Source: an uncultured Halobacteriales archaeon
Lineage (GTDB): Archaea; Thermoplasmatota; E2; JACPAO01; JAHFTW01
DNA length: 64,000 bases
NCBI GenBank assembly: GCA_964643795.1
Contig: CAZXUC010000018.1
Location: 2,238 to 66,237 of the forward strand
Direction of reading: 5' to 3'
Shown: piece by piece, positions 16,099-61,073 of the stretch
How positions within the stretch are numbered: the stretch's first letter is position 1
Layout of the letters: each line of letters begins with the position of its first letter
The notes under the pieces: model-generated
What the model was told of the DNA's origin: nothing
Seen by the model: only the letters and a program-made list of their open reading frames with translations
The model's database searches: none
Program-made: the position numbers and the translations under genes

Positions 16099-18396
16099 CT
16101 AGGCCAGCCGTCGGCGAACCAACAAGCCGACCGCAAGGGCGGCCAAGAGGGCGACAACGCCGAGGCCCGGCGTATTCTCCCCAGTCGTGTCGCCAGAGAT
16201 CGGGGCCGGCTGCGTGGGCGCGGGCGTCGTCGGGGCGGGCGGCGTGGGGGTGGGCTCCACGGTCGGCGTGGGCTCGACGGGCGGCGCCGGCGGTGCGGGG
16301 GGCGCGATGTCTGCCGGCAGATTCCCAAAGAGGCGTACGCTGTAGCGCGGCACCGCCACGGGAGCTGCTCCCACGGCGAAGTAGGCCGAGTCTGTCGGCG
16401 TGAAGGAGCCACTCTGGTCTGCGTCGTAGTAGCGCAGCGACATGCCCGCCGCAGGGAAGGCCGTCACGGCGTTGCGGTACGCGACGAAGTCCGCGTCGGA
16501 GGCGAAGGCCAAGGACCCGGCCGGGTAGTCGCCGACGGGGGTGAGCCGCAGCGTCCAACTGGTCGGGGAGGTGGTCGGAAGTAGCGCCGTCGCTCCGACG
16601 CCGGCCACGACGTAGACGTCGTCGCCCGCCTTGTACTTCCCGTCGTTGTTGCGGTCGCTCCACATGAGCGTGTATCCCCCCGTGTCGGTGAGGACGGTGA
16701 CGGCCCCCTGGCGCAGGGCGACGTCGCCGTCGGAGACGAGTTCACCAGGCGACTTGCCGTTGCAGTTCGAGAGCAAGATGTCGAAGTTGGAGACGATGCC
16801 GGCGCTGATCGTGCTGTCCATGTCGGCAATCAGGCAGTCGTCCGTGGCTTCGGATCCGCCCAGGGCCACCCAGAGCAGGTCGTCCGTCACGAGGATGCCG
16901 GTCGACACGAGGGTAGGGCGGAAGTCGGCGTCGCCCAGTTTGACCTGGACGCCGGCCTTGGCCGGCTCTTGGACCCGGAGCGAGGAGGGGGGCAGGGTGG
17001 TGCCAGCGGCGGCGACGCCGCCCACGACGACGTACCACTTGGCCCCGTCGTACTCCTCGATCTCGGCCGACATCGCGGGCGTGAAGGCCAGGAGAGCGTT
17101 CTTGTAGGCGAGGTAGTCCAGGTCCGTCGCGAAGACGAACGAACCAGCCGGGCCACTTGCCGTCGGCGTCAAGCGGATGGTGAACGCGTCGATCCCAGTC
17201 GTGGCGGGCATGTTGGGCGCCGCCATGGCGGTTCCGGCGGCCATCTGGCCCATGTAGACGTAGTCGCCTGCGTCGTAGCGTCCGTTGTTGTTGACGTCGG
17301 CGAAGAGGAGGTCAACAATCTCCTGGACCGGGGTGGGCGCCTTCTCGATCACGTCGGTGTCAATGATCTTGGTCCCCGGAGCGCCTCCTGGGCCGGTCGT
17401 GATGCGGATGTCGTCGAAGTCGAGGGTGCCCGCCGAGTTCGTGCCCTTGACGTTGAAGAAGAACAAGTCGTCCGTGACGGGCGTGTCGCCAAGCGGCACG
17501 CGCCAGATGATGTCTGCGGCGGTACCCCCGGACAACGGCTTGCCTGCGCCCTTGGATGTCGGGACGAAGTCAGTTGCGCCACTGTTGACGCGGGAACCGA
17601 ACGTGTCGGTCTTGGACAAGCGCAGCGCGTAGCGGGGCGCGAAGACGTTGGCTGCAAAGCCGTCGGCGGCGGTGAAGGCACCATCCCCGTTTGAGGTCTT
17701 GAACATGAGGTAGACGCCGGTGCCCTCGAAGGCGACTGAGAACGCGAAAGGGATGCCTGGAGGCGCGCCGGGGTCGACGGCGGTAATGTCGTTTCCAAGC
17801 ACGACCACGGCGGTCTGGTAGGCTTGGTAGTCCGCGTCCGCGGGGTACGCGAAACTGCCGGCTGGGCCGGCGTCGCTCGACGTCAACCGGATCGTCCACG
17901 AGGCGAGGCCGGTGGTGGGCATGAGGACTGTCGTCCCCGTCCCGGACACGAGGAAGACTGGGTCCTTGTCCTTGAATTTCCCGTCGTGGTCCGCGTCGCC
18001 GTAGACGACGGTGGCGGCAGCCGCCAAGGCGGCGACCTTGATGCTCGAGTCCGAGTCGGACACTAGGTCGCCCGGCTTGCGGGTCTGGTACGGAGTGAGG
18101 AAGATGTCCTCGTTGTCCACGGTGTTGACGAGCGCGCCGCCGACGTTGATGCCCTTCATGTCGATGAAAAACACGTTGTCGGCCACTTCGCCGCTGACGC
18201 CGAGGTCGACCTGCAGCACCTTGAGGTGGTGGTTGTCGTCCACGTTGTCCACGCCGGCGGTCACGCCGTACGCTTTCTTGGAGAGGGGGGCGAAGTCGGC
18301 TTCCTTGTCAACTTGGCTTCCGAATTCGGCTTGTGCTAGCGGACCGGCCAAGAGGAGGGCCGCCAACAGAATTGTTCGCAAATGGATTGTTCGCAT
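16099..18396 (-). CDS. Large surface glycoprotein-like protein with four repeated DxNxDG modules and a PGF-CTERM-like anchor. Paralog of the neighbouring gene.
   Basis: Signal peptide. Repeats DADHDGKFKDKDPVF, DVNNNGRYDAGDYVYM, DRNNDGKYKAGDDVYV. C-terminus PGLGVVALLAALAVGLLVRRRLA. Confidence 0.85.
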   Translation of the reverse strand: MRTIHLRTILLAALLLAGPLAQAEFGSQVDKEADFAPLSKKAYGVTAGVDNVDDNHHLKVLQVDLGVSGEVADNVFFIDMKGINVGGALVNTVDNEDIFLTPYQTRKPGDLVSDSDSSIKVAALAAAATVVYGDADHDGKFKDKDPVFLVSGTGTTVLMPTTGLASWTIRLTSSDAGPAGSFAYPADADYQAYQTAVVVLGNDITAVDPGAPPGIPFAFSVAFEGTGVYLMFKTSNGDGAFTAADGFAANVFAPRYALRLSKTDTFGSRVNSGATDFVPTSKGAGKPLSGGTAADIIWRVPLGDTPVTDDLFFFNVKGTNSAGTLDFDDIRITTGPGGAPGTKIIDTDVIEKAPTPVQEIVDLLFADVNNNGRYDAGDYVYMGQMAAGTAMAAPNMPATTGIDAFTIRLTPTASGPAGSFVFATDLDYLAYKNALLAFTPAMSAEIEEYDGAKWYVVVGGVAAAGTTLPPSSLRVQEPAKAGVQVKLGDADFRPTLVSTGILVTDDLLWVALGGSEATDDCLIADMDSTISAGIVSNFDILLSNCNGKSPGELVSDGDVALRQGAVTVLTDTGGYTLMWSDRNNDGKYKAGDDVYVVAGVGATALLPTTSPTSWTLRLTPVGDYPAGSLAFASDADFVAYRNAVTAFPAAGMSLRYYDADQSGSFTPTDSAYFAVGAAPVAVPRYSVRLFGNLPADIAPPAPPAPPVEPTPTVEPTPTPPAPTTPAPTQPAPISGDTTGENTPGLGVVALLAALAVGLLVRRRLA

Positions 18397-48576: not shown

Positions 48577-49638
48577 TCAGACCAAGCGGAGGAAGTCATC
48601 GACCGCCGCGCCGGGGCCGGCCACTTTCTTGGAGGGCATTTGCTGGCTCAAGCAGTGGATGGCACCCATCCCCCAGACTAAGTCTTGGCAAGGCAGCTTA
48701 ACGACGGGGCGGTCCTTGAAGCACTGCTGCAATCGTCGTTGCGCGATGTCGTCGGTCGGGCTTGCGAAGGTCGGCATGAGGACGGCGCCGTTCGTGATGA
48801 GGAAGTTGCCGTGGCTCGCTGGCAGGACGTTGCCTTCGTTATCGATCAGGTCCTTCGGCATCGGCAGTTCCACGATGCGAATCGACCGGTTGTGGGCGTC
48901 GGTCATGTGGCTCAACCGATGTCGGTTCTCGGCGAGGGGCTCGTAGTTGGGGTGAGCTCGGTCCTCTTCGACGCACGTGACGACGAGGCGGGGACCAACG
49001 AAGCGCGTGATGTCATCGACGTGGCCATCCGTATCGTCGCCTGCGATGCCGTCCGCGAGCCACAGGACTTTCTCGACGCCGAGGTATTCGCGCAAGTGCC
49101 TCTCGATGTCGGGCCGCGTCATGTCGTGGTTGCGGTTCTTGTTGAGCAGGCATTGTTCCGTGGTGATGAGTGTTCCTTGGCCGTCGACGTCGACGGAGCC
49201 GCCCTCCAGGACCATCTTGACGGCTGAGAGCGGGGAGCCGATTGCGTCGCCCAGTTGGTCGATGACCTTCTTGTCGCGCAAGAGTGATTCGTACTTGTTG
49301 CCCCACGCGTTGAATTCGAAGCGGACGACGATGCGGTCGCGCGTTCCCGGTTGCTTGCCGGGGCGAACGAGATAGATGGGGCCGTAATCGCGGATCCACG
49401 AGTCCTGATGGTTGACGGCGTGGAACTTGACGTTCTTGATTCCCTCGGCCTTGACGGCCTTGCTTGCGGCGGCTTCGAGGTCGGGGTGGACGACGAGGTC
49501 GACGCGTTGGTGCGGCGTGATTGCCTTCATCGCTGCTAGGAATGTTGCGCGCGCCAACGCAACGCGGTCCGGCCACGTCACTGGGTCGCGGGGCCAGACG
49601 AGCCAGACGGATTCCTGCGGCTCCCATTCGGCTGGCAT
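48577..49638 (-). CDS. aguA: Agmatine deiminase.
   Basis: MPAEWEPQESVWLVWP N-terminus. Catalytic-Cys C-terminal region (GAIHC). ATG at 49638 in ORF 48577..49704. Confidence 0.9.
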   Translation of the reverse strand: MPAEWEPQESVWLVWPRDPVTWPDRVALARATFLAAMKAITPHQRVDLVVHPDLEAAASKAVKAEGIKNVKFHAVNHQDSWIRDYGPIYLVRPGKQPGTRDRIVVRFEFNAWGNKYESLLRDKKVIDQLGDAIGSPLSAVKMVLEGGSVDVDGQGTLITTEQCLLNKNRNHDMTRPDIERHLREYLGVEKVLWLADGIAGDDTDGHVDDITRFVGPRLVVTCVEEDRAHPNYEPLAENRHRLSHMTDAHNRSIRIVELPMPKDLIDNEGNVLPASHGNFLITNGAVLMPTFASPTDDIAQRRLQQCFKDRPVVKLPCQDLVWGMGAIHCLSQQMPSKKVAGPGAAVDDFLRLV

Positions 49639-49799
49639 GCGGTAGCCCTGCTCGCGCGGGGTCGGAACGGGGCCGCGCAGCGACATGTGCACGGCAGCCT
49701 TCACGCGGGCACGATTGGCGCTTGCGACTTAACGGCGCCGCAACCCGCCCCCGCCCGGACCACCTGCCCACGCACCGCACCGGGCGCTTGCGGCCGTGA

Positions 49800-51398
49800 C
49801 TAGACCGGAAGGCCAGTGATGCCCGCGATGACCGCGGCGGCCGCCGGCCCCCCGTCGGGGCAGGCTGCGACGAGAGCGCTGCGCACCGGCCAGGCCTGCG
49901 AGGCCGCCGGCAACGTCGTGGTCGCGTTGTAGTATCCCTGGGTCCAGGCGCCCCAGGCGGACTGGCGACACATGGAGTCCACCTCGAACCACGCCTTCTG
50001 GTTGCCGTTCTGGACGCTGTACCAGGTGCCGGCGGCGTACCCGGCGATGCGGTCGGCCTCGTGGGACCAGTGGTCGGTGCCCTTGTAGCGTCCCCAGTAC
50101 GTGCCATGGCCCTCCGACATGTACGTCACCTCGGTCCGGCTTGCGCCCAGCGGCAGCGCGGCGACCTGGCCGACCTGGTCGCCCTGCAGCGTGTAGTTAG
50201 CGGCCCGGAAGAGGGCCTCGCGCATCTCGTCGATCGTAAGGACACCGTCGGCCAGGGCGCACTGCGCGTTGGCCGCGCCACAACCCGCCGTGCCCCGAGC
50301 CAGCACGCCGGCGTCCTGCGTGCGGGACTCGCCCACGAGCCGGCGCAGCTGGTACAGGGCCTCCGCGTACATGCCGGCGGTGACCGGCGTCGCGTTGCTC
50401 GTGCCGCCGAACTTTCCCTCGCCGGCCACGGTCGGTCCGGCGCCGCGCGGGTAGTCCGTACCGAGGCTTGCCACGTGCACGGGCTTGCCGGTGCCCGAAT
50501 ACGAGTAGCCCTCGCCCGAGATGGCGCCGACGACAATCGTCCAGTCGTTGCCCTTGGCGTCGTTGGCGTAAGTCGACTGGGGTGCCCGGAAGTCGTTCTG
50601 CAGGCCGTTGCCGGCCGCCCAGAAGATCTGGTGGCCGCGCTCGACGGCGACGCGGCGCGCCTCGAGGTCGGCACCCGCGTTGACTGAGTCGCGCATGGTG
50701 ACGCACTGGACTGGCAGCGGCGGCACGGACGGCGTGCACTCGCCACGTAAGGTGGAGGATTCCCAGGAGTTGCTCTGCACGTCAATCCAGTCCTGCGCCG
50801 CGGCCCACTCGGAGGCCTTGTTGCCCAAGCCGTGGACGAAGACGAGGAGGCACTCGGGGCACGTGCCGTGCAGGTTGCCGACGCTCACGGTTGCGGAGCC
50901 GAGGCCGTGGCTGTCCGGCATGAAGGCGCCGTCGCCTGCGAAGTCGACGAGGCCGATGACCTTCGTGCCGGGGATGTACGCGTAGTTCACCTTGTCCGGT
51001 TCGGAGGGCTTGAGGGTGTCCCAGGCGGCCTGGTCGGCGTCGTGCAGCTCCTGCGCGAGGCGGGAGCCGTCGTCGGGGGTGAAGTTGAGGTCGAGGCGCG
51101 TGTAGCTCGCAAACGCGGAGGCTCCGGGGAAGCCGGGGACCCATTCGGCGGGGTCAGCGGTTAGGGGGAGGTCGTCGGTGGGATCGTCGTTGCCGTGCTG
51201 CGGCAGGTACTCGGAGAGGAAGTCGAAGTGGTACGGGTTGATGCCGACGTCGATGATGGCGACCACGACGACACCGTCGTGGTTTCGGTCGGACAAGGGG
51301 GAGCCGGCGGGATCGTCGCGCGGCGTGGCGCAGCCTGACAGAAGGACGCCGACGAGGGCGACGGTGAGGGCGACGGTGAGGAACCTGGTCCGCAGCAT
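49800..51398 (-). CDS. Subtilisin-like (S8) serine protease lipoprotein.
   Basis: Asp / His (HGT) / Ser (GTSNATPVTAG) triad. Lipobox signal peptide MLRTRFLTVALTVALVGVLLSGC. Confidence 0.85.
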   Translation of the reverse strand: MLRTRFLTVALTVALVGVLLSGCATPRDDPAGSPLSDRNHDGVVVVAIIDVGINPYHFDFLSEYLPQHGNDDPTDDLPLTADPAEWVPGFPGASAFASYTRLDLNFTPDDGSRLAQELHDADQAAWDTLKPSEPDKVNYAYIPGTKVIGLVDFAGDGAFMPDSHGLGSATVSVGNLHGTCPECLLVFVHGLGNKASEWAAAQDWIDVQSNSWESSTLRGECTPSVPPLPVQCVTMRDSVNAGADLEARRVAVERGHQIFWAAGNGLQNDFRAPQSTYANDAKGNDWTIVVGAISGEGYSYSGTGKPVHVASLGTDYPRGAGPTVAGEGKFGGTSNATPVTAGMYAEALYQLRRLVGESRTQDAGVLARGTAGCGAANAQCALADGVLTIDEMREALFRAANYTLQGDQVGQVAALPLGASRTEVTYMSEGHGTYWGRYKGTDHWSHEADRIAGYAAGTWYSVQNGNQKAWFEVDSMCRQSAWGAWTQGYYNATTTLPAASQAWPVRSALVAACPDGGPAAAAVIAGITGLPV

Positions 51399-51531
51399 GC
51401 GCCGGACGTGGCGGGGCGGATTGAAAGTGTTGCGGTGGCCGGGGCGAGCGCCGTCCGGCACGTCGCGCCGGCTGCTTCGAACGCGATTGCCCCCCGGAAA
51501 TGCCCATGAAGTCGCCGGGCGTGCCTTTCCC

Positions 51532-51852
51532 ATGGCCTACGACGAGGGTCTTGCCGAACGTATCCGCGAGCTCTTGCCCAAGGCGACCGAGAAACGCATG
51601 TTCGGTGGCGTCGGCTTCATGGAGCGCGGCAACCTCGTGGTGGGAGTCCTGGGCGACGAAATGATTGCCCGCGTCGGTCCCGATGACACGGCGGCGGCCC
51701 TCAAGGAGGATGGGGTTCGCACCTTCGACTTCACCGGGAAAACGATGAAGGGCTGGGTCGTCGTCGCGCAAGAAGTCCTGCCGGAAGAGGAAGAGCTCCT
51801 AGCGTGGGTGCAACGCTGCCAGAATTTTGCCCGCACGCTGCCTGCCAAGTGA
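51532..51852 (+). CDS. TfoX N-terminal-domain protein.
   Basis: ATG at 51532 in ORF 51178..51852. MAYDEGLAERIRELL...RMFGGVGFM matches the TfoX_N fold. Confidence 0.75.
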   Translation: MAYDEGLAERIRELLPKATEKRMFGGVGFMERGNLVVGVLGDEMIARVGPDDTAAALKEDGVRTFDFTGKTMKGWVVVAQEVLPEEEELLAWVQRCQNFARTLPAK

Positions 51853-51858
51853 CTGTGC

Positions 51859-52068
51859 CTAGGGGGTCGGCGTCGGCACCATCGCCTTCCCGCAGTCAGC
51901 GCAGAACGTCGCGGATTCGGCCTGCAGTTTCTGCATGCGCTCCCTTGGCTTCAGGGGGAAGTTGGTCGCCGTATACGCCAAGGCCAGCGACGCCAAGGCC
52001 AAGCCCATCGTCGCGTAGCGGATGAGGGCCAGCCCTCCTGAGCTGACCATGCTGCCAGCGCCGAGCAT
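51859..52068 (-). CDS. Possible small membrane protein with a C-terminal CxxC.
   Basis: 69-aa ORF. TM segment then FCADCGK. Confidence 0.3.
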   Translation of the reverse strand: MLGAGSMVSSGGLALIRYATMGLALASLALAYTATNFPLKPRERMQKLQAESATFCADCGKAMVPTPTP

Positions 52069-52117
52069 GCAGCGGGACCGGCTGGCCGCTAGATGAAGGC
52101 TGGAGGCTGGCTTGGGC

Positions 52118-52346
52118 TCGACATGCGCCTCGGAGCCTTCCTGGCCGAGGGAGCACCATCATCGCGCTGCGCGAGGACAGCAAGGCCCGTGTCGTCAACA
52201 AGAACCACTTCGAGGAAGCGTTCCGCAGCGTCTGCATCTCCGTCACGGAAGAGGTCATCAAGTACTACGACCGCCTCGCCGAGCAGCTCGGCCAGACCAC
52301 CGTCAAGAAGGTCGCGACGGGCGGGGGCGGAATGGAGTTCCTTTAA
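52118..52346 (+). pseudogene. C-terminal fragment of a Cdc48/VAT-type AAA ATPase (last 65-75 aa only).
   Basis: Third-frame translation STIIALREDSKARVVNKNHFEEAFRSVCISVTEEVIKYYDRLAEQLG...MEFL* matches a Cdc48 C-terminus. No upstream ATPase body. Confidence 0.6.
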
Positions 52347-52416
52347 GGGACTGCGGTCCCAGCGGCGGGCCGTTGCGGCCGTCAAAGCTGATATCCTATC
52401 CAAGAATGGTTCTGCC

Positions 52417-53919
52417 GTGAGCGGCAGGACACGGAGGCACCGGGAGCCGGAGGCCCCGCAACCCTTCCGGCCACGCCGCGGCATCGACCTCGCGCTCCTG
52501 GGCATCCTGCTCGTCGGCATTCTCCTGCGCCTGCCGCACGCCACGGACGAGGACGGCTACTTCAAGGACTACGCCGACGAGGCGACCTACTTCACTACCG
52601 GCTACGCGCACTACCGCGGCGGCCCCGATTTCCCCTTGCCCCATGGTGGGTCAGGCCTGCCGCTCGCGCTCGAGTTCGTGCTGTGGGTCTCGGGCGTCCC
52701 AGGCGGCGACCCCGTGCCACAGCCCCATGCCGACGCAAGCTACCAGCTGACCCCGGACCAGGTGCACGCCGCACACCTCGCCTACGCCATGACCTTGGGC
52801 TTCAACCTCCTCTTCATCCTGGGCGTCTTCGCTTTGGCGGCCGGCTTGCTGGGGCGCGACAACCCTTGGTCGCTCCTGCCGCCTGCCCTCGTGGCCGTGG
52901 CGCCATACCAAGTGACGTCTAACATGCGCTTCCTCTCGGAGCCGCTGTACGCGGCCTTGGTCTGCTTCGCCATCGTGTTCGTCCTCAAGGCGAAGAAGGA
53001 TCTGGCCTACCTGTACGCCGCCGCCTTGTGCATGGCCGGTGCCCACCTGCTGCGCGTGACCGGCCTCTTCCTCATGGCCGCCCTCGCCTTGTTCGCCTGG
53101 TTCTTCCTGCGCAACCCGTACGCCACGCGGCAGAAGCACCATTGGCACGTGCTGGGATCCGTCGCCGTCTTCTTCCTGGTCTGCACGCCTTACCTGGACT
53201 GGCGCGCGGAATCGCTGCCCGGCCCCTTCGACTACGGGGTGAACGGCCGCTATTGGACCGACAACCAGTGGGATTTCTCGGACCAGTACTGGCAGACCTA
53301 CACGCCCAAGACCGGGGGCGAGAAGGAGACCATGTCCGACTACTTCGAGTCGCACAGCGTCGGCCATGCCGCCGAACGCCTGTGGCATAGCCTGTGGTGG
53401 CCCCTGCGCGACACCTTCAGCCTAAGCCCGGGATCGGAGCCCGACAAAGTCTTCTCAGGCCTGGAGACCGCGGCGGTCGCTGCGGCCTTCGGGTGGGGGC
53501 TGAGCAGGGGAAGCATCCCCGCCGGGCAGCGGTGGCTCTCGTTGACCATGTTCCTGAGCACCAACCTTCCCGTCGTCTGGGTCTACCCGACGGCCATCAA
53601 CCCGCGTTTCTTCCTGCTCCTGGCACCTATCGCCTTCGTGGTGGTCGCCGGCCAGGTCCAGGCCATCCCGCGGCCCCGCCTGCGCCTTGCCGTGGGCCTT
53701 GCGCTCCCGCTCGCCGTGCTCGGCGTGTACACGCTGCGGGTCGCGATGCCCGGCCCGGCGGTCGCCCATTGGCTTACCATGGGAGGGTGGGCGCTGTTCT
53801 GGGGCTCGTGGCCCGTCCTTGCCTGGGGCATCCTGCGCGGCCGCACGCACTGGATGGCCCGCAAGCTGCCGCCCCCGGGGCAACCGGCGGGCGCAGTCCC
53901 CGAAGCGACCGTGGCGTAA
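52417..53919 (+). CDS. GT39/GT-C family glycosyltransferase (ArnT/PMT-like multi-TM protein).
   Basis: About 500 aa, polytopic. GTG at 52417 preceded by the AT-rich aaagctgatatcctat. Paralog of 57783..59360. Confidence 0.75.
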   Translation: MSGRTRRHREPEAPQPFRPRRGIDLALLGILLVGILLRLPHATDEDGYFKDYADEATYFTTGYAHYRGGPDFPLPHGGSGLPLALEFVLWVSGVPGGDPVPQPHADASYQLTPDQVHAAHLAYAMTLGFNLLFILGVFALAAGLLGRDNPWSLLPPALVAVAPYQVTSNMRFLSEPLYAALVCFAIVFVLKAKKDLAYLYAAALCMAGAHLLRVTGLFLMAALALFAWFFLRNPYATRQKHHWHVLGSVAVFFLVCTPYLDWRAESLPGPFDYGVNGRYWTDNQWDFSDQYWQTYTPKTGGEKETMSDYFESHSVGHAAERLWHSLWWPLRDTFSLSPGSEPDKVFSGLETAAVAAAFGWGLSRGSIPAGQRWLSLTMFLSTNLPVVWVYPTAINPRFFLLLAPIAFVVVAGQVQAIPRPRLRLAVGLALPLAVLGVYTLRVAMPGPAVAHWLTMGGWALFWGSWPVLAWGILRGRTHWMARKLPPPGQPAGAVPEATVA

Positions 53920-54029
53920 CGCCCCGGCGTGTTCTGGCTCGCACCATTATTTCCCCTGGACCACTCGAAGGGCTGGGTGCACTGAATGAAGGTCTTCGAG
54001 TCCGAGCTGCGTGGCGGCGTCTTCGTGCG

Positions 54030-54275
54030 GCCGTGCTGACATGCGCGCCCAACGCGCGCGACGAGCGCCAAGCCGCCTACGAAGAATTCGGGGCCCACAT
54101 CTGGAAAACCGTCCTTGACGACGTTGAATTCCCCGACTTCGACGACAAACTCACCTACCTCCAAAACGGCCGCGGCGACTGGACCCGATGCGTCCTGCAC
54201 CCCGGCATGTCCGCCACCAACAACCCCGCCGAACAAGCCCTACGGGAACACGTCACAGCTACACGGATTGAATCC
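54030..54275 (+). mobile_element. IS66-family transposase C-terminal remnant.
   Basis: In-frame segment ...DWTRCVLHPGMSATNNPAEQALREHV... carries the NNxAExALR motif of IS66 TnpC. No DDE core and no IRs. Confidence 0.5.
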
Positions 54276-54356
54276 CCAAAGGCAAAGAGGGCGACCTTTG
54301 TCGGTGCGCACGTGCCCCGACCCGCCAAGCGTCCCGCGCAGGAGGCCGAACGTCCC

Positions 54357-55439
54357 GTGCAGGCCAACGGCCCCACCGCGGGCGGCAAGGACCTCACGAA
54401 GCCGGCGTTCCGTTCCTACCTTGTCACGGGGGGTGCCGGCTTCCTCGGCCAAGCCATCGTCCCCCGCTTGCTGGCTGGCGGGGCGCGCGTGCGCGTGCTC
54501 GACACCGCGCGCATCCCGTCCGAGTGGGAAGGGCAGGTCGAGGGCATCATCGGCGACATCCGGGACGCGGCCGCGGTCGAGGCGGCCGCCGCCGGCATGG
54601 AGTGCGTCCTGCACGGCGCCGCCGCCTTGCCCATCCACCGTTCGGCCAAACTGATCCACGGCGTCAACGTCGACGGGACGAGGAACCTGCTCGATGCCGC
54701 CGTGCGGCATCGCGCGAAATCATTCGTCTTCGTCTCCTCGACGGCCGTGTACGGCCTGCACAAGGAGCACCCCATCACGGAGGAGAACCGCATGATTCCC
54801 GTGGGACCATACGGCGAATCCAAGGTCAAGGCGGAACTCGTGTGCCAGTCCTTCCGCGACCGCCTGCACGTCGCCATCGTCCGGCCGAAGACGTTCCTCG
54901 GCCAAGGCCGCCTCGGCGTCTTCGAGATCCTCTTCGACTGGATCCATGACGGCAAGCGCATCCCCATGATCGGCAAGGGGCACAACAAGTACCAGCTCCT
55001 GGACGTCGAGGACCTCGTCGATGCCATACTCATCACCAGCGCCCACCCCAAGGGCTCCGACACGTTCAACGTCGCCGCGAACGAGTTCGGCACGTTGCGC
55101 GAGGACCTGACCCCCCTGTTCAAGGCCGCAGGGCATGAGCCACGGTTTTTGCCGACGCCGCGCCGCACCACCATCAGCGCCCTCTGGGTCCTGGACAAGC
55201 TGCGCCTCAGCCCGCTCACGAAGTGGCACTACGGCACGATGTCGAGCGACTCCTACGTCGAGACCGACAAGGCGCAACGCATTCTCGGCTGGACCCCCAA
55301 GCGCAGCAACCAGGACACCCTGCTCGCCGCCTACACGTGGTACCACGCGCACCGCGATGAAGTCAAGGCCCAAGTCGGCACGACGCACACCGTGCCCTGG
55401 AACCAGAAGATCCTGAAAGTGTTCAAGCGTCTGGCCTGA
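54357..55439 (+). CDS. NAD-dependent epimerase/dehydratase (SDR family).
   Basis: GGAGFLG Rossmann motif and YxxxK (YGESK). GTG at 54357 with GGAGG 12 nt upstream. The N-terminal part of ORF 53394..55439 is the IS remnant. Confidence 0.85.
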   Translation: MQANGPTAGGKDLTKPAFRSYLVTGGAGFLGQAIVPRLLAGGARVRVLDTARIPSEWEGQVEGIIGDIRDAAAVEAAAAGMECVLHGAAALPIHRSAKLIHGVNVDGTRNLLDAAVRHRAKSFVFVSSTAVYGLHKEHPITEENRMIPVGPYGESKVKAELVCQSFRDRLHVAIVRPKTFLGQGRLGVFEILFDWIHDGKRIPMIGKGHNKYQLLDVEDLVDAILITSAHPKGSDTFNVAANEFGTLREDLTPLFKAAGHEPRFLPTPRRTTISALWVLDKLRLSPLTKWHYGTMSSDSYVETDKAQRILGWTPKRSNQDTLLAAYTWYHAHRDEVKAQVGTTHTVPWNQKILKVFKRLA

Positions 55440-55620
55440 CCCCACGGACCTTGAGGCCAGGCGCGGCTGAATCAGCTCAATTGCAGGGAGACACGCAAAA
55501 CGTGTCCTTGCAATTGAGAGATTCAACCGTCTGCCCCCAAGATTTTCTGCTCAATCCGAGGCCCCCAACCGTTCGCCAACCAATGCAAAACCATGAAGGG
55601 CGCCAGGCCGTGGCCAATGT

Positions 55621-56610
55621 GTGCGTGACGAGCTTAGCGTCCAGGAGGCAGTACAGCCCCCGCGCCGACGTGTCAAGGCATCAGCCGTCCTCGCCGCCGT
55701 CGCCGTCGTCGTGCTCGCCGTCGCCCTGTGGCGCAGCGACCCCCGCGCCGCCGCCCGCGAGCTGGTTCGGGTCCCCCTTGGCCACATCGGCCTCGTCGTG
55801 GTCCTCGTCCTCGTCGCGTACGCCTTGCGCTTCGCCAAGTGGCACCTGTTCCTGCGCCGCCTCGGCACAGAGGTCCCTTTGGGGCGCAGTGCGGCCATCT
55901 TCACAAGCGGCCTCCTCATGGTCGTCACGCCCGCCAAGGTCGGCGAGGTGTGGAAGGCCCTCGCACTGAAGGAAACGGACGGCATCCCTGTCGCGCGCGG
56001 CCTGGGCGCCGTCGCCCTCGAACGGCTGACGGACCTTGCCGCCGTGGGCGCCCTCGCGCTTCTTGGCGCCGCCGCCCTGGGGCTTGCCCCCTGGCTCGCA
56101 GCGGGGGCCATGCTGGCCTTCACCGCCGGGGTCCTTCTCCTGCGCTGGCGCCGCCCTTGGCTCGCCCTCCTCGCGCGCCTCGAGGCCAGGCACCCCGGCT
56201 CGCGGCCCGTCGCGTTCCTGCATGCGCTCTACCTAGACACTGCGAGCCTGCTGTCCTGGTCAACCCTCGGCATCGGCGCGGTGCTTGGGCTGGTCGCGTG
56301 GGCGCTGGAGGGCCTTGCCTTGTGGGTCATCCTCGACGGCCTCGGCGTCGATGCGTCCCCCGTCTGGGCGATCGGGGTGTTCTCGGTTGGCACGCTCGCG
56401 GGCGGCCTCAGCGTCCTGCCCGGGGGCGTCGGCACCGCGGAGGCGGGGATGATCGCGCTCCTCGTCGCTGGCGGCGTCGCCTCATCGACGGCGTTCGCCG
56501 CGACGCTCCTTGTGCGCGTGCTCACGCTGGGTTTCGGGGCGACGTTGGGTGGCGTATGCTATGGCTTGTGGTCATGGCGGCGCCGCGTGGCCCTGGTTCC
56601 CTCCGCGTAA
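55621..56610 (+). CDS. Lysylphosphatidylglycerol-synthase-TM / flippase-like membrane protein (UPF0104-like).
   Basis: About 8 TM segments. Pattern typical of PF03706 proteins that accompany GT clusters. Confidence 0.65.
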   Translation: MRDELSVQEAVQPPRRRVKASAVLAAVAVVVLAVALWRSDPRAAARELVRVPLGHIGLVVVLVLVAYALRFAKWHLFLRRLGTEVPLGRSAAIFTSGLLMVVTPAKVGEVWKALALKETDGIPVARGLGAVALERLTDLAAVGALALLGAAALGLAPWLAAGAMLAFTAGVLLLRWRRPWLALLARLEARHPGSRPVAFLHALYLDTASLLSWSTLGIGAVLGLVAWALEGLALWVILDGLGVDASPVWAIGVFSVGTLAGGLSVLPGGVGTAEAGMIALLVAGGVASSTAFAATLLVRVLTLGFGATLGGVCYGLWSWRRRVALVPSA

Positions 56611-56677
56611 GGGCACGGTCGCGGTGGCGGCCCCCCACATGCGCGCCATGTCACGGAATCGCGGGGAGGACGCAAAT

Positions 56678-57547
56678 CTAGCCGAGGGCATGCAGCCACT
56701 CGTATCCCGCCTGCGGCCACCCCGCCTTCACGGCCACAATCATGGCAAGCCACAGCACCGCGTTGACGACGGTCGCGCGGTCCTTGAACACCATCTCCGC
56801 CTCATCGCCGAGGTCGCGGCGGTGCACGAGCCACGAGTAGCGGAAGACGCCGTAGATGGCGAAGGGGATGGTGAACATCATCCACGCGTCGGTGCCGAAG
56901 AAGGTGTACAGGCTGTACGCCATCAAGAGCAGCGTCGTGCTGGTCTGCATGGCCTGCTCGACGAACGGCACCGTGTATGCGCCCAGGCTGGGGCGGCTCT
57001 CGAGCGCCTTGGGGTCGTCCTGGACCAGCAGGAGCTCGTGGCGCCGCTTGGCCAGCGCGAGGTAGAGGGCGAAGAGGAACGTGCAGACGATGAGCCACTC
57101 CGTAGAGGGAACGTCGATGGCCGCGGAGCCCGCCAAGGCGCGCACGACGAAGCCGATAGCCACGGCGATGGCATCCCACAGGACGAGGCGTTTGAGCAAG
57201 CCATTGTACAGCACTTGCAGCAGCAGGTAGGCCATGCCGAGCACGATGGAGAGCGGGCCGAGCCACCACAACGCGGCGAGGGCAGCGACGGCGAGAAGCA
57301 AGCAGAGGGCGACGCCGGTGGCGGGTGAGACCTTGCCGGACGCGATGGGGCGCGCCTTCTTGCGCGGATGCATGCGGTCGCGGTCGGCATCGACGACGTC
57401 GTTGGCCGCGTACACCGACGCGGACAGCGCGCAGAACGCAGCGAAGCAGAGGAGGATCGGCGGCCAGAGCGTCGTGTTGCTGGCGTTGCCGGAGAACAGG
57501 AGGGGAATGAAGACGACGAGGTTCTTGTACCACTGGCGGGGCCGCAT
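56678..57547 (-). CDS. UbiA-family prenyltransferase, DPPR-synthase-like (decaprenyl-phosphate phosphoribosyltransferase).
   Basis: QWYKN..., ANDVVDADRDRMHPRKKARPIASG Asp-rich motifs. ATG at 57547 in ORF 56678..57955. Confidence 0.8.
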   Translation of the reverse strand: MRPRQWYKNLVVFIPLLFSGNASNTTLWPPILLCFAAFCALSASVYAANDVVDADRDRMHPRKKARPIASGKVSPATGVALCLLLAVAALAALWWLGPLSIVLGMAYLLLQVLYNGLLKRLVLWDAIAVAIGFVVRALAGSAAIDVPSTEWLIVCTFLFALYLALAKRRHELLLVQDDPKALESRPSLGAYTVPFVEQAMQTSTTLLLMAYSLYTFFGTDAWMMFTIPFAIYGVFRYSWLVHRRDLGDEAEMVFKDRATVVNAVLWLAMIVAVKAGWPQAGYEWLHALG

Positions 57548-57782
57548 CAGGCGCAGCAACGGAGGCAGGCCGCTCAACGACGCTCCAGCGGCGGCGCGTT
57601 TGAAAGGCTGACTGGTCGCGCGCTGACCATGCCGTTCTCCCGTGAAGCGTCTACAAGGGGTCCGATTGCGCCGGGCGCGGGGGCCGGTTGGAAGCCGCTT
57701 GACGCGGGTAGCTTCTTGATGGCCTCCATGGCGTCGTGGATGGCCTTGGGCCGCGGAGGCCCGCGCGGACAGCGACAGGCTC

Positions 57783-59360
57783 ATGATTGTCGCGCCGGAT
57801 GGCCTCGCGTTGGGACGCAAACGCGCCGCCGAGCGCCGCATCGAGGAGCCCGAAGGCTGGGCGCAGCGCCTGCTCCGGCCGCACATCCTCGGCCTGGGCT
57901 TGGTCCTCCTCCTAGCCGCCGCGATGCGGTTGTGGGGACTGGGCCGCGAGAGCATCTGGTGGGACGAGGCCTACTCGATCGCGTGGTCGCAGCACGACCT
58001 GGGCTGGCTGCTCGACTACCTCCGGACCTCGGACGTCCACCCGCCGGCCTACTACGCCGTGCTGCACGGCTGGGTCGTGGCGCTCGGGCCGGGCGTCGCC
58101 GAGACGCGCCTGCTCTCGGCCCTCCTCGGCCTGGCCGGAATCGCCGCGGCGTACCTCTTGGGCCGCGACATGTTCCGGCCCCGCGTCGGCGTGCTCTTCG
58201 CGCTCTTCGTGGCGGTGTCCGAGTTCCACCTGTACTACTCGCAGGAAGTCCGCAGCTACATCATGCTGTTCGCGGCCTCGGTGGTCTCCATGCACGCGTA
58301 CTGGCAGCTCTTCCACCGCCCGGACGCGCCGCGCCTGGGGTGGCGGTTCGCCTACTACGTGGCGGCCACGACGCTCCTCCTCTACACCCACTTCACCGGC
58401 GTGTTCGTCGTGGTGGCGCAGGTCGCCCACCGAGCCATCATCCTCGCCAACGCGCCCGACCGGAAGGCGTTCCTCCTGTGGGCGGCCAGCCAGGCCCTGG
58501 TCGCCGCGCTGTTCCTGCCGTGGTTCCTCGTGCTGCTGGAGCAGGCGGCCCGCGTCGAGCAGGGGTTCTGGATCCCGAAGCCGACGCTGGCGGCGGGGCA
58601 GCGGCCGCCGGACTTCTCGGTTGGAGGGACCTTCCGGCAGTTCACCGGCGGCGGCCCGCGGGCCTGGGTCGCGTGGCTGCTGGTGGGCAACGGGCTCGCG
58701 GCCTCCACGCTTGCCACCCTGAACCGCGAGCGCAACCCGGACGACTCCGAGTCGCACCGGCCGTACCCGGCCGCCAAGGTGCTGCTCCTGGTGGCGTGGC
58801 TGCTCTGCAGCGTCCTCCTCCCGTTCTTCCAGTCGATGTTGTCCCAGCCCATCTACCTGAGCCGCATCGTCATCCCGGCGCTGGCGCCGCTGTGGCTGCT
58901 GGCGGCCGTGGGCGTGGCACGGCTGCGGCTGCCGGCAGCGCAGACGGTCGCCGCTGGACTCGTGGTCGCCTTGGCGGTGCCCGGCCTGGCCGACTACTAC
59001 ACGACGGACGCCAAGGAGCGCTGGGACCTCGTGGTGGCCGCGGTGGAGGAGGGCGCCGCGCCCAATGCCACAGTCGTGCTCGTCGGCAACGCCGGGAACC
59101 CGTGGGCCGTGTACGCCGAGCGGCCGGACCTCCGCACCGTGCGCGCCGGGACGGCGCAGGAGGTCGCGAACCAGACCGCCGGCGAATCCGACGTCTGGCT
59201 GGTCTCGCGCCAGGATCCCGCCTGCGGCCAGCCGAGCCCCCTCGTGTCCGCCCTCGGGCAGGGGCGCCGTCTCGTCTCGTGCGAGCAGTACATGGCGCAG
59301 GGGCTGCGCGACTTCCCGTTGGCGGCCAACCCCCTGTACGTCCACCATTTCTCCGCGTGA
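57783..59360 (+). CDS. GT39/GT-C family glycosyltransferase, second copy.
   Basis: RLWGLGRESIWWDEAYS motif. Polytopic N-terminus and soluble C-terminal domain. Confidence 0.85.
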   Translation: MIVAPDGLALGRKRAAERRIEEPEGWAQRLLRPHILGLGLVLLLAAAMRLWGLGRESIWWDEAYSIAWSQHDLGWLLDYLRTSDVHPPAYYAVLHGWVVALGPGVAETRLLSALLGLAGIAAAYLLGRDMFRPRVGVLFALFVAVSEFHLYYSQEVRSYIMLFAASVVSMHAYWQLFHRPDAPRLGWRFAYYVAATTLLLYTHFTGVFVVVAQVAHRAIILANAPDRKAFLLWAASQALVAALFLPWFLVLLEQAARVEQGFWIPKPTLAAGQRPPDFSVGGTFRQFTGGGPRAWVAWLLVGNGLAASTLATLNRERNPDDSESHRPYPAAKVLLLVAWLLCSVLLPFFQSMLSQPIYLSRIVIPALAPLWLLAAVGVARLRLPAAQTVAAGLVVALAVPGLADYYTTDAKERWDLVVAAVEEGAAPNATVVLVGNAGNPWAVYAERPDLRTVRAGTAQEVANQTAGESDVWLVSRQDPACGQPSPLVSALGQGRRLVSCEQYMAQGLRDFPLAANPLYVHHFSA

Positions 59361-59370
59361 TGGGGCCAAA

Positions 59371-59589
59371 TCAGTGGCTGCCGGCGACCTTGGGGAACTG
59401 CCACGCCTTCCATTGCCCCTTTTTGCATTGATCGACCATCTGCCAGAACTGGTCGAAAAAGTGGCCGGAGTCCCATGGCCCGGGGCTGGCCTCGGGGTGG
59501 TACTGCATCGTGAAGATGGGGAGGCTCTCGTGCCGGACGGCTTCGACGACGCCGGAATCAAGACGTCGCTGAAGGCGGCGCGCAAACAC
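59371..59589 (-). pseudogene. carA: C-terminal fragment of a carbamoyl-phosphate synthase small subunit (GATase) gene.
   Basis: [21 protein letters not shown] matches the CarA C-terminus. No upstream N-terminal body. Confidence 0.55.
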
Positions 59590-59648
59590 AACTCGTGCTC
59601 GAGGTCGTCGTTGATGCGGTCACAGTCCGCGTCCGTGGAGCCCGTGCA

Positions 59649-59722
59649 TTGCCGGAAGAGGAAGAATTGGCGGCGTGGGTGAAGCGCTGCCAGACGTTCG
59701 CGCGGACCTTGCCTGCGAAGTG
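59649..59722 (+). pseudogene. Duplicated 3' fragment of the tfoX gene (last 24 codons).
   Basis: LPEEEELAAWVKRCQTFARTLPAK* against TfoX LPEEEELLAWVQRCQNFARTLPAK*. About 80% nucleotide identity to 51781-51852. Confidence 0.55.
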
Positions 59723-59731
59723 AAGAACACC

Positions 59732-60172
59732 CTACGTCACGACAATCTGGATTGGCTGGCTCCACACCTCGACGCCATCGACAAGGGCGCGGGCACGCAG
59801 CCAAAACGTGCCGGGCGTCCTCAACACGATTAGGTCGTTCTTGGTGCACCCGAGGTGCCGCTGATTACCGTCCGGGCTAGTGCACGGTTCGGGCGTGGAA
59901 AGCGACGTGGGTGCCGTCGAGATGTAGTAGTGTTCGAGGGTGGCCGGCTCAGCGTCGCCGGGCGTGGCCCAGACGGCCGTGTGGGTAGCATTTGCGAATC
60001 CCCCGTGATGCCCAAGTGTTCCATGGCGAGCGATTTCGTAGCTCACGCTGAACTGTTGACCTGCCTCCACTTGTTCTGGGTAATCCAGCCAGGCGATGGT
60101 TGCCACAGGGGCCTCAGTAAGGCAGCCGGACCCCAGCACGATGGCGACGACGAGCAACAAGACCACACGCAT
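59732..60172 (-). CDS. Lipoprotein, 146 aa.
   Basis: MRVVLLLVVAIVLGSGC lipobox. Shares the PGTF[WY]LRA...W motif with 62851..63705. Confidence 0.55.
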   Translation of the reverse strand: MRVVLLLVVAIVLGSGCLTEAPVATIAWLDYPEQVEAGQQFSVSYEIARHGTLGHHGGFANATHTAVWATPGDAEPATLEHYYISTAPTSLSTPEPCTSPDGNQRHLGCTKNDLIVLRTPGTFWLRARALVDGVEVWSQPIQIVVT

Positions 60173-60212
60173 GTAACACGCGAGCCGGCCCGATGCCCAA
60201 GTATGTTGGGGT

Positions 60213-61073
60213 TCAATCGTCGAGGTACCGCTGCACAAGTCCCTGGTACGCGTCGATGCGTCGGTCGCGGAAGAACGGCCAACCGCGGCGGGCCTTCTCG
60301 ATTTCGGCCATGTCAAGTTCGACGACCATGACTTCCTCCTTCTCGCCCGCTTCGGCCGCCACGATCCCCATGGGCTTCGCGACGAAACTGTGGCCCCAGA
60401 ATTCGAGTTCGCCCTCCTTGCCGACGCGGTTGACGGCCACGACGAAGCACCCGTTGGCAACGGCGTGGCTGCGTTGGATGGTGTGCCAAGCCTGGTGCTG
60501 CGTCTCCTTGTATTCCATCTCGCCCGTCCAGGTTCCGATTGCCGTCGGATAGAACAGGATGTCCGCTCCCTGCAGGGCCGTGAGTCGGGCCGCTTCCGGG
60601 TACCATTGGTCCCAGCACACTAGGGTGCCAATGCGGCCAAACTTCGTGTCGAAGACCTTGAAGCCCAAGTCGCCGGGCGCGAAGTAGAATTTCTCGTAGA
60701 AGCGCGGGTCGTCGGGGATGTGCATCTTGCGGTACTTGCCGAGGTACTTCCCATCCGCATCGAGGACGGCGGCCGTGTTGTGATACAGGCCTTTTGCGCG
60801 GCGCTCGAAGATGGAGCCGACGATGACGATGCCGTGTTGCTTCGCCTTCTGCGCGAGGGCTTCCGTGGTGGGTCCGGGGATTTCTTCAGCGAGGTCGAAG
60901 AACGCCGCGTCCTCTTCTTGGCAGAAATACGTGGAGGAGAAGAGTTCCTGCGTGCACACGACTTGCGCGCCCTTGTTGGCGGCTTGGTCGATGAGCGTGA
61001 GCTGGCGAGCCAGGTTCTCCTTCGGGTCGTCCGAGGCGTGGGTCTGGATGAGTCCGACCTTGAGCTTCGTCAT
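60213..61073 (-). CDS. aguB: N-carbamoylputrescine amidase (carbon-nitrogen hydrolase).
   Basis: CN-hydrolase Glu-Lys-Cys triad context (VCWDQWYPE). Length and sequence typical of AguB. Confidence 0.9.
   Translation of the reverse strand: MTKLKVGLIQTHASDDPKENLARQLTLIDQAANKGAQVVCTQELFSSTYFCQEEDAAFFDLAEEIPGPTTEALAQKAKQHGIVIVGSIFERRAKGLYHNTAAVLDADGKYLGKYRKMHIPDDPRFYEKFYFAPGDLGFKVFDTKFGRIGTLVCWDQWYPEAARLTALQGADILFYPTAIGTWTGEMEYKETQHQAWHTIQRSHAVANGCFVVAVNRVGKEGELEFWGHSFVAKPMGIVAAEAGEKEEVMVVELDMAEIEKARRGWPFFRDRRIDAYQGLVQRYLDD

Follow-up and report, generated by a model that had tools for sequence, protein, structure and literature searches.

The 64-kb window analysed here, a stretch of contig CAZXUC010000018.1 from an uncultured Thermoplasmatota archaeon, contains a 7,796-bp island (51853-59648) of glycosylation genes and gene debris, located between a complete tfoX gene and a displaced second copy of the tfoX 3' end. 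The island was probably acquired horizontally and is a genuine genomic island of an ordinary type: it is absent from the corresponding locus of relatives, deviates in base composition from its surroundings and is flanked by direct repeats. The mobility genes of the island are limited to an internal fragment of an IS66 transposase, and no integrase was found in it. The cassette probably entered by recombination anchored on tfoX homology, which displaced the gene's earlier 3' end.

The complete tfoX (51532-51852, + strand) encodes a protein of 106 amino acids with a TfoX_N domain only (Pfam E=7e-15), and its orthologues of 106 amino acids share 64-87% identity with it. The TfoX_C domain is absent from the product, and all orthologues have a length of about 106 residues; the label tfoX thus refers here to a stand-alone TfoX_N protein and not to the two-domain TfoX/Sxy competence regulator. 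The 3' tail of this resident gene (51778-51852, +), comprising 75 nt or 24 codons plus the stop codon, recurs as a stub of the same length at 59649-59723 (+). Aligned from their stop codons, the two tails are identical at 58 of 75 nt (77%) without any gap, and their translations, LPEEEELLAWVQRCQNFARTLPAK for the resident tail and LPEEEELAAWVKRCQTFARTLPAK for the stub, each followed by the stop, agree in 21 of 24 residues. The similarity starts abruptly on the 5' side with a run of 16 identical nucleotides (TGCCGGAAGAGGAAGA) and has its 3' limit at the TGA stop codon, while identity is at background level both upstream and downstream of the repeat. The second-best ungapped match of the 75-mer on either strand of the window reaches only 37/75, and tblastn recovers the repeat with E=2e-10. 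A repeat search ranks the two tails, spaced 7871 bp apart, first among the direct repeats of the region; the other repeats between 49.7 and 60.5 kb are short matches at chance level, and no ends of insertion sequences (IS) were found there. The tail duplication noticed in a preliminary description of this DNA is therefore real at the nucleotide level, as 58/75 against a next match of 37/75 indicates, and its second copy extends one base beyond the end given there (59722), because the stop codon ends at 59723. An open reading frame (ORF) of 42 codons with a GTG start (59595-59723, +) ends in the displaced tail. It is antisense to the stretch immediately upstream of the carA stub described below and displays no sign of expression.

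The 17 nucleotide differences between the two tails are distributed 5/2/10 over codon positions 1/2/3 and change the amino acid in only three codons. By the Nei-Gojobori method (NG86), the nonsynonymous divergence (dN) is 0.107 and the synonymous divergence (dS) 1.81, which corresponds to a dN/dS of about 0.06. In simulations, 17 random substitutions left at most three amino acid changes and an intact stop codon in 0 of 50,000 runs, and 8-9 neutral substitutions on one copy gave this outcome in 1.3-3.4% of runs. The mostly synonymous substitution pattern indicates that the stub derives from another allele that was once functional, rather than from a duplicate that arose locally and decayed. 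Both tails would on this evidence have diverged within working genes, and one of them would have arrived via recombination with another lineage. The term target duplications, which the preliminary description had used, does not hold in the transposon sense, as 17 of 75 nt differ with only three amino acid changes; the repeat is better described as two alleles and a displaced 3' end.

The locus was compared with eight relatives for which flanking sequence is available (L082, L085, L087, L001, L093, L091 and L092, plus short contigs). Homologues of TfoX and of GT-C2, one of the glycosyltransferases of the island, carry Thermoplasmatota annotation, and the best genome match of aguB is a Thermoplasmata metagenome-assembled genome (80% amino acid identity); a look-up of the exact AguB protein gave no record. 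The backbone of aguA(-), tfoX(+) and aguB(-) is kept in the relatives, while the content of the slot between tfoX and aguB differs by lineage. The left backbone gene, aguA (agmatine deiminase; 48577-49704, -), is conserved and shares 58-72% amino acid identity with the tfoX-adjoining PAD_porph genes of L082, L085, L087 and L093. The equally conserved right backbone gene, aguB (N-carbamoylputrescine amidase; 60213-61073, -), shares 73-83% with the tfoX-adjoining CN_hydrolase genes of L001, L082, L085, L087 and L093. In L082 (81% TfoX identity), the order is malic enzyme, aguA(-), tfoX(+), a BNR lipoprotein gene(-), aguB(-) and rhodanese, and L087 (74%) has aguA, tfoX and aguB with a gap of 6 bp between the latter two. 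L001 (64%) carries tfoX, a gene for a membrane protein of 147 amino acids, aguB and rhodanese, and L093 (65%) carries aguA, a gene for a 123-amino acid protein, tfoX, a GT-C gene, a gene for 261 amino acids and aguB. Other membrane or MFS genes lie 3' of tfoX in L091 (87%) and L092 (81%), and L085 (74%) contains aguA, a gene for a secreted protein of 333 amino acids, tfoX, a DUF6036/AbiEii-like pair and aguB. The slot of L085 (10337-11072) consists of a DUF6036/AbiEii-like nucleotidyltransferase gene and a small partner gene, which looks like a toxin-antitoxin or defence pair. None of the eight loci contains the island, the S8 protease gene upstream of tfoX or the lipoprotein gene downstream of the stub, and the island is therefore considered lineage-specific content of a hypervariable slot. 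The eight island-free relatives also support the earlier proposal that insertion or recombination brought in a glycosylation cassette. A metagenome scan with a TfoX alignment yielded 11 loci, mostly shorter than 2.5 kb and uninformative on the slot.

The composition of the island points in the same direction as its absence from relatives. Its GC content is 68.4%, in comparison to 63.8% for the backbone, and the GC content at third codon positions (GC3) is 0.87-0.95 in the island genes and 0.73-0.83 in aguA, tfoX, aguB and rhodanese. The tfoX stub (0.80) and the lipoprotein gene (0.73) have backbone-like GC3 values. The previous surroundings of the cargo are indicated by its gene fragments. A carA 3' stub (last 66 codons plus stop; 59371-59571, -) with a match to the GATase family follows GT-C2 and is 79% identical to residues 320-385 of the L088 CarA, that is, over its last 66 residues and including an unusual C-terminal extension. 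In L088, carB(-) and carA(-) are separated by a GT-C2 homologue whose 3' end converges with that of carA, as in the window. The stub thus matches the very end of CarA that is convergent with the GT-C2 homologue, which identifies it as a remnant of a previous neighbour that travelled along with the cargo. The cdc48/VAT 3' stub (the stop and roughly the 60 codons before it; 52158-52346, +) lies immediately upstream of GT-C1 in the same orientation and may likewise mark a former cdc48-GT-C1 neighbourhood, for which no example was found. Its assignment is based on residues 503-550 of VAT (PDB 5vc7, E=0.0026) and on positions 693-732 of 733 of TIGR01243 (E=6e-4). The IS66 fragment lies between the GT-C1 part and the rest of the island, and the island thus appears to be a mosaic in which two or more chromosomal pieces of related archaea with a higher GC content are combined. 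L093, with the GT-C1 homologue, and L088, with the GT-C2 homologue between carB and carA, come from the same metagenome sample.

In the proposed course of events, the incoming DNA would have been assembled from chromosomal pieces of related archaea, with the 3' stubs of old neighbours on its left (cdc48) and right (carA) and the IS66 remnant in its middle. It would have entered via tfoX homology and supplied either the tfoX 3' end or the whole tfoX. The other join would have occurred at codon 82 of the tfoX then resident, pushing the last 24 codons and the stop of that gene 7.87 kb downstream, beside what is presumably the native lipoprotein gene. This could have happened by homology-facilitated illegitimate recombination, in which one end pairs by homology and the other undergoes an illegitimate join within the resident gene. 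The geometry would be matched equally well by a circular fragment that entered through one Campbell-type crossover in the 75-bp homology; if this was catalysed by an integrase, the 16-nt identical run at the repeat edge would have been the crossover core. On the anchor side of the illegitimate-recombination model, the left end of the island carries a complete tfoX, and the tail alleles show the low dN/dS given above; on the other side, homology ends abruptly at 59648/59649. In close relatives, the empty-site allele is predicted to be a tfoX ending in AAWVKRCQTFARTLPAK that is directly convergent with the lipoprotein gene.

Several observations speak against this reconstruction or reduce its precision. 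No donor genome was found in which microhomology at the illegitimate junction could be read. The empty-site check proposed in the preliminary description succeeded in part: eight relatives keep tfoX followed by aguB without the island, but the exact site, tfoX followed by the lipoprotein gene, was not recovered, because no relative with the same lipoprotein was found, and the exact pre-insertion state is therefore a deduction. The right junction rests on this one assembly, since the independent Logan contig spans only 48702-52270. In addition, the stub peptide agrees with the orthologues P0006 and P0002 in 22/24 and 20/24 residues, the resident tail in 19/24 and 18/24, and the nucleotide identity to the two nearest orthologues is 77-79% for the stub and 64-67% for the resident tail. 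That the stub is nearer to the orthologues than the resident tail is only suggestive as to which tail is native, as it is confounded by the variability of the tails, which generally vary more than the gene bodies.

Alternative explanations have to account for the same tail anatomy. An unlikely one is site-specific integration, in which the island would be a degraded integrative element with an attachment (att) site in the tfoX 3' end and its own replacement 3' end, so that attL consists of the tfoX body and the element tail, and attR of the original tail. The anatomy corresponds exactly to such an event: homology sets in abruptly at the 5' edge with 16 identical nt, its longest such run, continues in a diverged tail with conserved coding and ends at the stop codon, and the resident tfoX is left intact, as in the insertion of integrative elements. 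However, 51853-59648 contains no integrase or recombinase gene or fragment, all stretches being assigned to other genes and stubs, and the cargo, which contains housekeeping-gene stubs, is of a chromosomal type. None of about 10 relatives with flanks showed a second tfoX tail, and a scan of viral contigs with the TfoX alignment revealed no TfoX-related locus. The 16-nt run lies in a conserved coding stretch (LPEEEE), where it has a probability of about 1-2% at a given position; it is weak evidence, which codon conservation could equally explain. A transposon-like origin of the repeat, by duplication of the tfoX 3' end in situ during insertion and neutral decay of the downstream copy, is very improbable. 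Like target duplications, the tail repeats lie in direct orientation on both sides of the insert, but 75 bp far exceeds the target duplications of transposases, and 23% nucleotide differences have accumulated with only three amino acid changes, a retained stop and no frameshift. The probability of this pattern under neutral decay is about 0.01-0.03 if half of the changes fell on the live copy and below 2e-5 if all were neutral. Moreover, the stub is nearer to the tails of other lineages than to the resident tail.

An ancestral presence of the island at this locus, with independent losses in the relatives and the stub as an old local duplication, is also improbable. Glycosyltransferases in the slot are not unique to the window, since L093 also has a GT-C gene, the sole GT-C1 homologue, between tfoX and aguB. 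This gene, however, is inverted and only 40% identical to GT-C1, while backbone proteins are 65-87% identical, and the eight relatives (TfoX 64-87%) each have a different slot content. The island GC3 lies clearly above that of the backbone, the cdc48 and carA stubs indicate pieces from other genomic contexts, and the dN/dS of the tails is unlike that of a decaying duplicate. A simple inversion relative to L093 was ruled out by the direct orientation of the stub. Finally, a chimeric contig joining two strains or loci has to be considered for a metagenome assembly, the more so as the sole independent contig found (Logan L081) ends at 52270, inside the cdc48 stub. This contig is 100% identical over 48702-52270 and independently confirms the order of aguA, S8 protease, tfoX, orf69 and the cdc48 stub. 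A chimera formed via tfoX homology would join the body to a tail and not set a tail behind 7.8 kb of intervening sequence, a k-mer assembler would not be misled by an identical run of only 16 nt, and the arrangement of GT-C2 and the carA stub mirrors a real one in L088; an assembly artefact is hence hardly to be expected.

The proposed recombination event would have brought in five genes that are related to glycosylation. GT-C1 (52417-53919, +) encodes a divergent GT-C-type membrane glycosyltransferase, for which a collection of 5.8 billion proteins contains a single homologue (P0175, 40% identity, PMT/PMT_2). This homologue is encoded in L093 (8192-9724), in the same tfoX-aguB slot on the opposite strand. 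The relationship of GT-C1 to the GT-C2 family was detected by hhalign with 77.5% probability (E=1.9e-5). GT-C2 (57783-59360, +) has homologues of 52-61% identity in Thermoplasmatota. Its AlphaFold2 (AF2) model, with a predicted local distance difference test (pLDDT) score of 88, has only GT-C enzymes among its top 34 PDB fold matches, including Pmt4, AglB, ArnT, Stt3, ALG9/12, AftA, AftB and AftD. As the Pfam PMT_2 match (E=0.0037) stays under the curated cut-off, the assignment of GT-C2 is based on this predicted fold and on homologues annotated as PMT_2. Two further genes encode an NAD-dependent SDR epimerase/dehydratase (54357-55439, +; Pfam Epimerase E=2e-37), whose translation contains the motifs TGGAGFLG and YGESK, and an LPG_synthase_TM/flippase-like membrane protein (55621-56610, +; PF03706 E=2e-44; TIGR00374 91 bits, cut-off 43). 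The fifth gene (56678-57549, -) encodes a UbiA-family enzyme resembling polyprenyl-phosphate phosphoribosyltransferases. It scores 215.5 bits against NF008977, the equivalog model for decaprenyl-phosphate phosphoribosyltransferase (DPPRS), which is just under the cut-off of 234, and its predicted sequence contains the NDxxDxxxD motif. It is 43% identical to UbiA genes that belong to operons in two other Thermoplasmatota contigs, L090 (240-4763) and L105 (696-5194). These operons consist of co-directional genes for FAD_binding_4 (DprE1-like), adh_short (DprE2-like), UbiA and GT-C proteins, the GT-C protein being a homologue of GT-C2, and represent in archaea the gene set of the mycobacterial decaprenyl-phospho-arabinose (DPA) pathway.

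Judged by the families of its proteins, the cargo most likely serves pentofuranose glycosylation outside the cytoplasm. The UbiA-family enzyme would convert phosphoribosyl pyrophosphate (PRPP) into a polyprenyl-phosphate-linked pentofuranose donor, and the SDR epimerase may alter the pentose. Passage of the donor through the membrane would depend on the flippase-like protein, and surface glycans or glycoproteins would then receive the sugar from GT-C1 and GT-C2. It is tentatively suggested that this is an archaeal version of an extracytoplasmic pathway so far described only in bacteria, with ribo-, arabino- or xylofuranose as the sugar and a flippase of the LPG_synthase_TM type, and that it may move between Thermoplasmatota as a surface-diversifying cassette. 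If so, the organisms of L090 and L105 would make polyprenyl-phospho-arabinofuranose, a donor thought to be typical of mycobacteria and their relatives. Two features fit this pathway less well. A 5-phosphatase gene is not present in the cassette, and the epimerase gene lacks a clear ATG start: near the Rossmann motif there are only GTG codons at 54312 and 54357, the latter being the presumed start. Expression of the epimerase may begin at an internal start or yield a fusion with the IS66-like fragment. Elsewhere in the window, a gene for a secreted repeat protein of 765 amino acids (16099-18396, -) contains a Pro/Thr-rich linker followed by a C-terminal PGLGVVALLAALAVGLLVRRRLA, which resembles the PGF-CTERM archaeosortase signal. 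As a possible S-layer or surface glycoprotein, it is a candidate acceptor of surface glycosylation.

The remaining part of the island consists of debris and one small ORF. The IS66-family transposase remnant (54045-54257, +) matches positions 271-342 of 387 of NF033517 with E=7e-6, far under the cut-off of this model because it is a fragment, and in Pfam only with E=0.055. The transposase is incomplete, and the repeat search revealed no inverted repeats flanking it. The remnant and the SDR epimerase share one unbroken frame of 681 codons (53394-55439, +). All genes and fragments that had been listed between the two tails, i.e., the Cdc48 stub, two GT-C proteins, IS66, epimerase, flippase-like protein, UbiA and the carA stub, were confirmed. 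The additional orf69 (51859-52068, -) is convergent with tfoX and is called as a gene on L081; it has no family match in Pfam or NCBIfam and no homologue in the relatives' loci. The end of L081 inside the cdc48 stub could reflect a repeat shared with the intact cdc48 of this genome or merely low coverage. Pfam gave no match for GT-C1, orf69, the lipoprotein and the cdc48 stub, for which NCBIfam and PDB were needed instead. Intact copies of cdc48, carA and carB are not found in the 64-kb window. Scans for sigma-70 promoters and intrinsic terminators stayed at background level, and these models are not applicable to archaea.

On either side of the tfoX tails lies a further lineage-specific gene. 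An S8 subtilase gene (49800-51533, -; Pfam Peptidase_S8 E=3e-13) with an island-like GC3 of 0.90 is located between aguA and tfoX. In L085 and L093, this position is occupied by genes for other secreted proteins. The aguA-tfoX slot is thus likewise variable, and the S8 subtilase side of tfoX looks like a site of lineage-specific gain. The lipoprotein gene (59732-60174, -; lipobox LGSGC; probable start ATG 60172) is convergent with the tfoX stub. Its product has no family match, and a metagenome scan gave 370 pattern matches and 0 relatives. In the Thermoplasmatota relatives, a stand-alone TfoX_N gene is conserved between the agmatine-to-putrescine genes aguA and aguB, always convergent with aguB. 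This conservation suggests a functional or regulatory link that is independent of competence.

The locus is a clean example, dated by its sequence, of the swapping of surface-glycan genes in an uncultured archaeon: the flanks are constant and the content is specific to the lineage. A record of the recombination is preserved in the displaced gene end, and the hitch-hiking stubs reveal the previous neighbours of the cargo, which is useful for studies of gene flow and surface diversity in Thermoplasmatota. The type of event is already known; the locus provides a further example and leaves the understanding of genomic islands unchanged. Hypervariable surface-polysaccharide loci that are replaced by recombination between conserved flanks include the O-antigen clusters (between galF and gnd) and the pneumococcal cps locus (between dexB and aliA). 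Conserved flanks, a lineage-specific slot with glycosylation cargo, atypical composition, IS remnants and gene debris are common to these loci and the island. In contrast to them, the island lies in an archaeon, has tfoX and aguB as its flanks and is GC-richer instead of GC-poorer, and one flank was cut within the gene, leaving a stub. The slot in relatives also holds non-glycan genes, such as those for a BNR protein, an MFS transporter and the AbiEii-like pair. A different comparison is offered by e14 and phage 21, which insert into the 3' end of icd in E. coli and supply a replacement end. There, too, an intact gene lies on one side and a 3' pseudo-copy with mostly synonymous divergence on the other, with homology ending at the stop codon, but the archaeal island lacks an integrase as well as phage or plasmid genes, and nothing comparable recurs at the site in relatives.

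The closest mechanistic parallel is found in the effector-immunity arrays of the Vibrio cholerae type VI secretion system (T6SS) and in orphan Rhs tips. For these, displacement by homology-facilitated illegitimate recombination, which leaves orphaned 3' ends, was proposed (PMC5361080, citing de Vries and Wackernagel 2002 for this kind of recombination). Both cases share a conserved upstream anchor, an illegitimate join inside the resident gene, and a resident 3' end that is shifted and retained together with its downstream neighbour. In the archaeon, the anchor is a small TfoX_N gene instead of a toxin gene, there is a single displacement and not an array, and the mechanism is deduced from the end product only.

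For the cargo, the relevant prototypes are the three-component extracytoplasmic pentofuranose systems of Citrobacter youngae O1/O2, which comprise a lipid phosphoribose synthase, a flippase, a GT-C enzyme and optionally an SDR epimerase; the flippase is of the MATE type in the prototype and of the SMR type in mycobacteria (PMC11127046). The island likewise encodes a UbiA-family enzyme, a putative lipid-sugar flippase, GT-C enzymes and an SDR epimerase with TGxxGxxG and YxxxK motifs. It differs in its LPG_synthase_TM flippase candidate, with no MATE or SMR gene, in having two GT-C genes, in lacking a phosphoribose 5-phosphatase gene, in the sub-cut-off score of its UbiA and in its archaeal host, where the system is a predicted one. 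The mycobacterial DPA pathway has a separate counterpart in the DprE1-like/DprE2-like/UbiA/GT-C operons of the relatives L090 and L105. These similarities suggest that lipid-linked pentofuranose glycosylation, recently defined in bacteria, may also exist in archaea, which is the most interesting lead from this locus and one for which it provides candidate genes.

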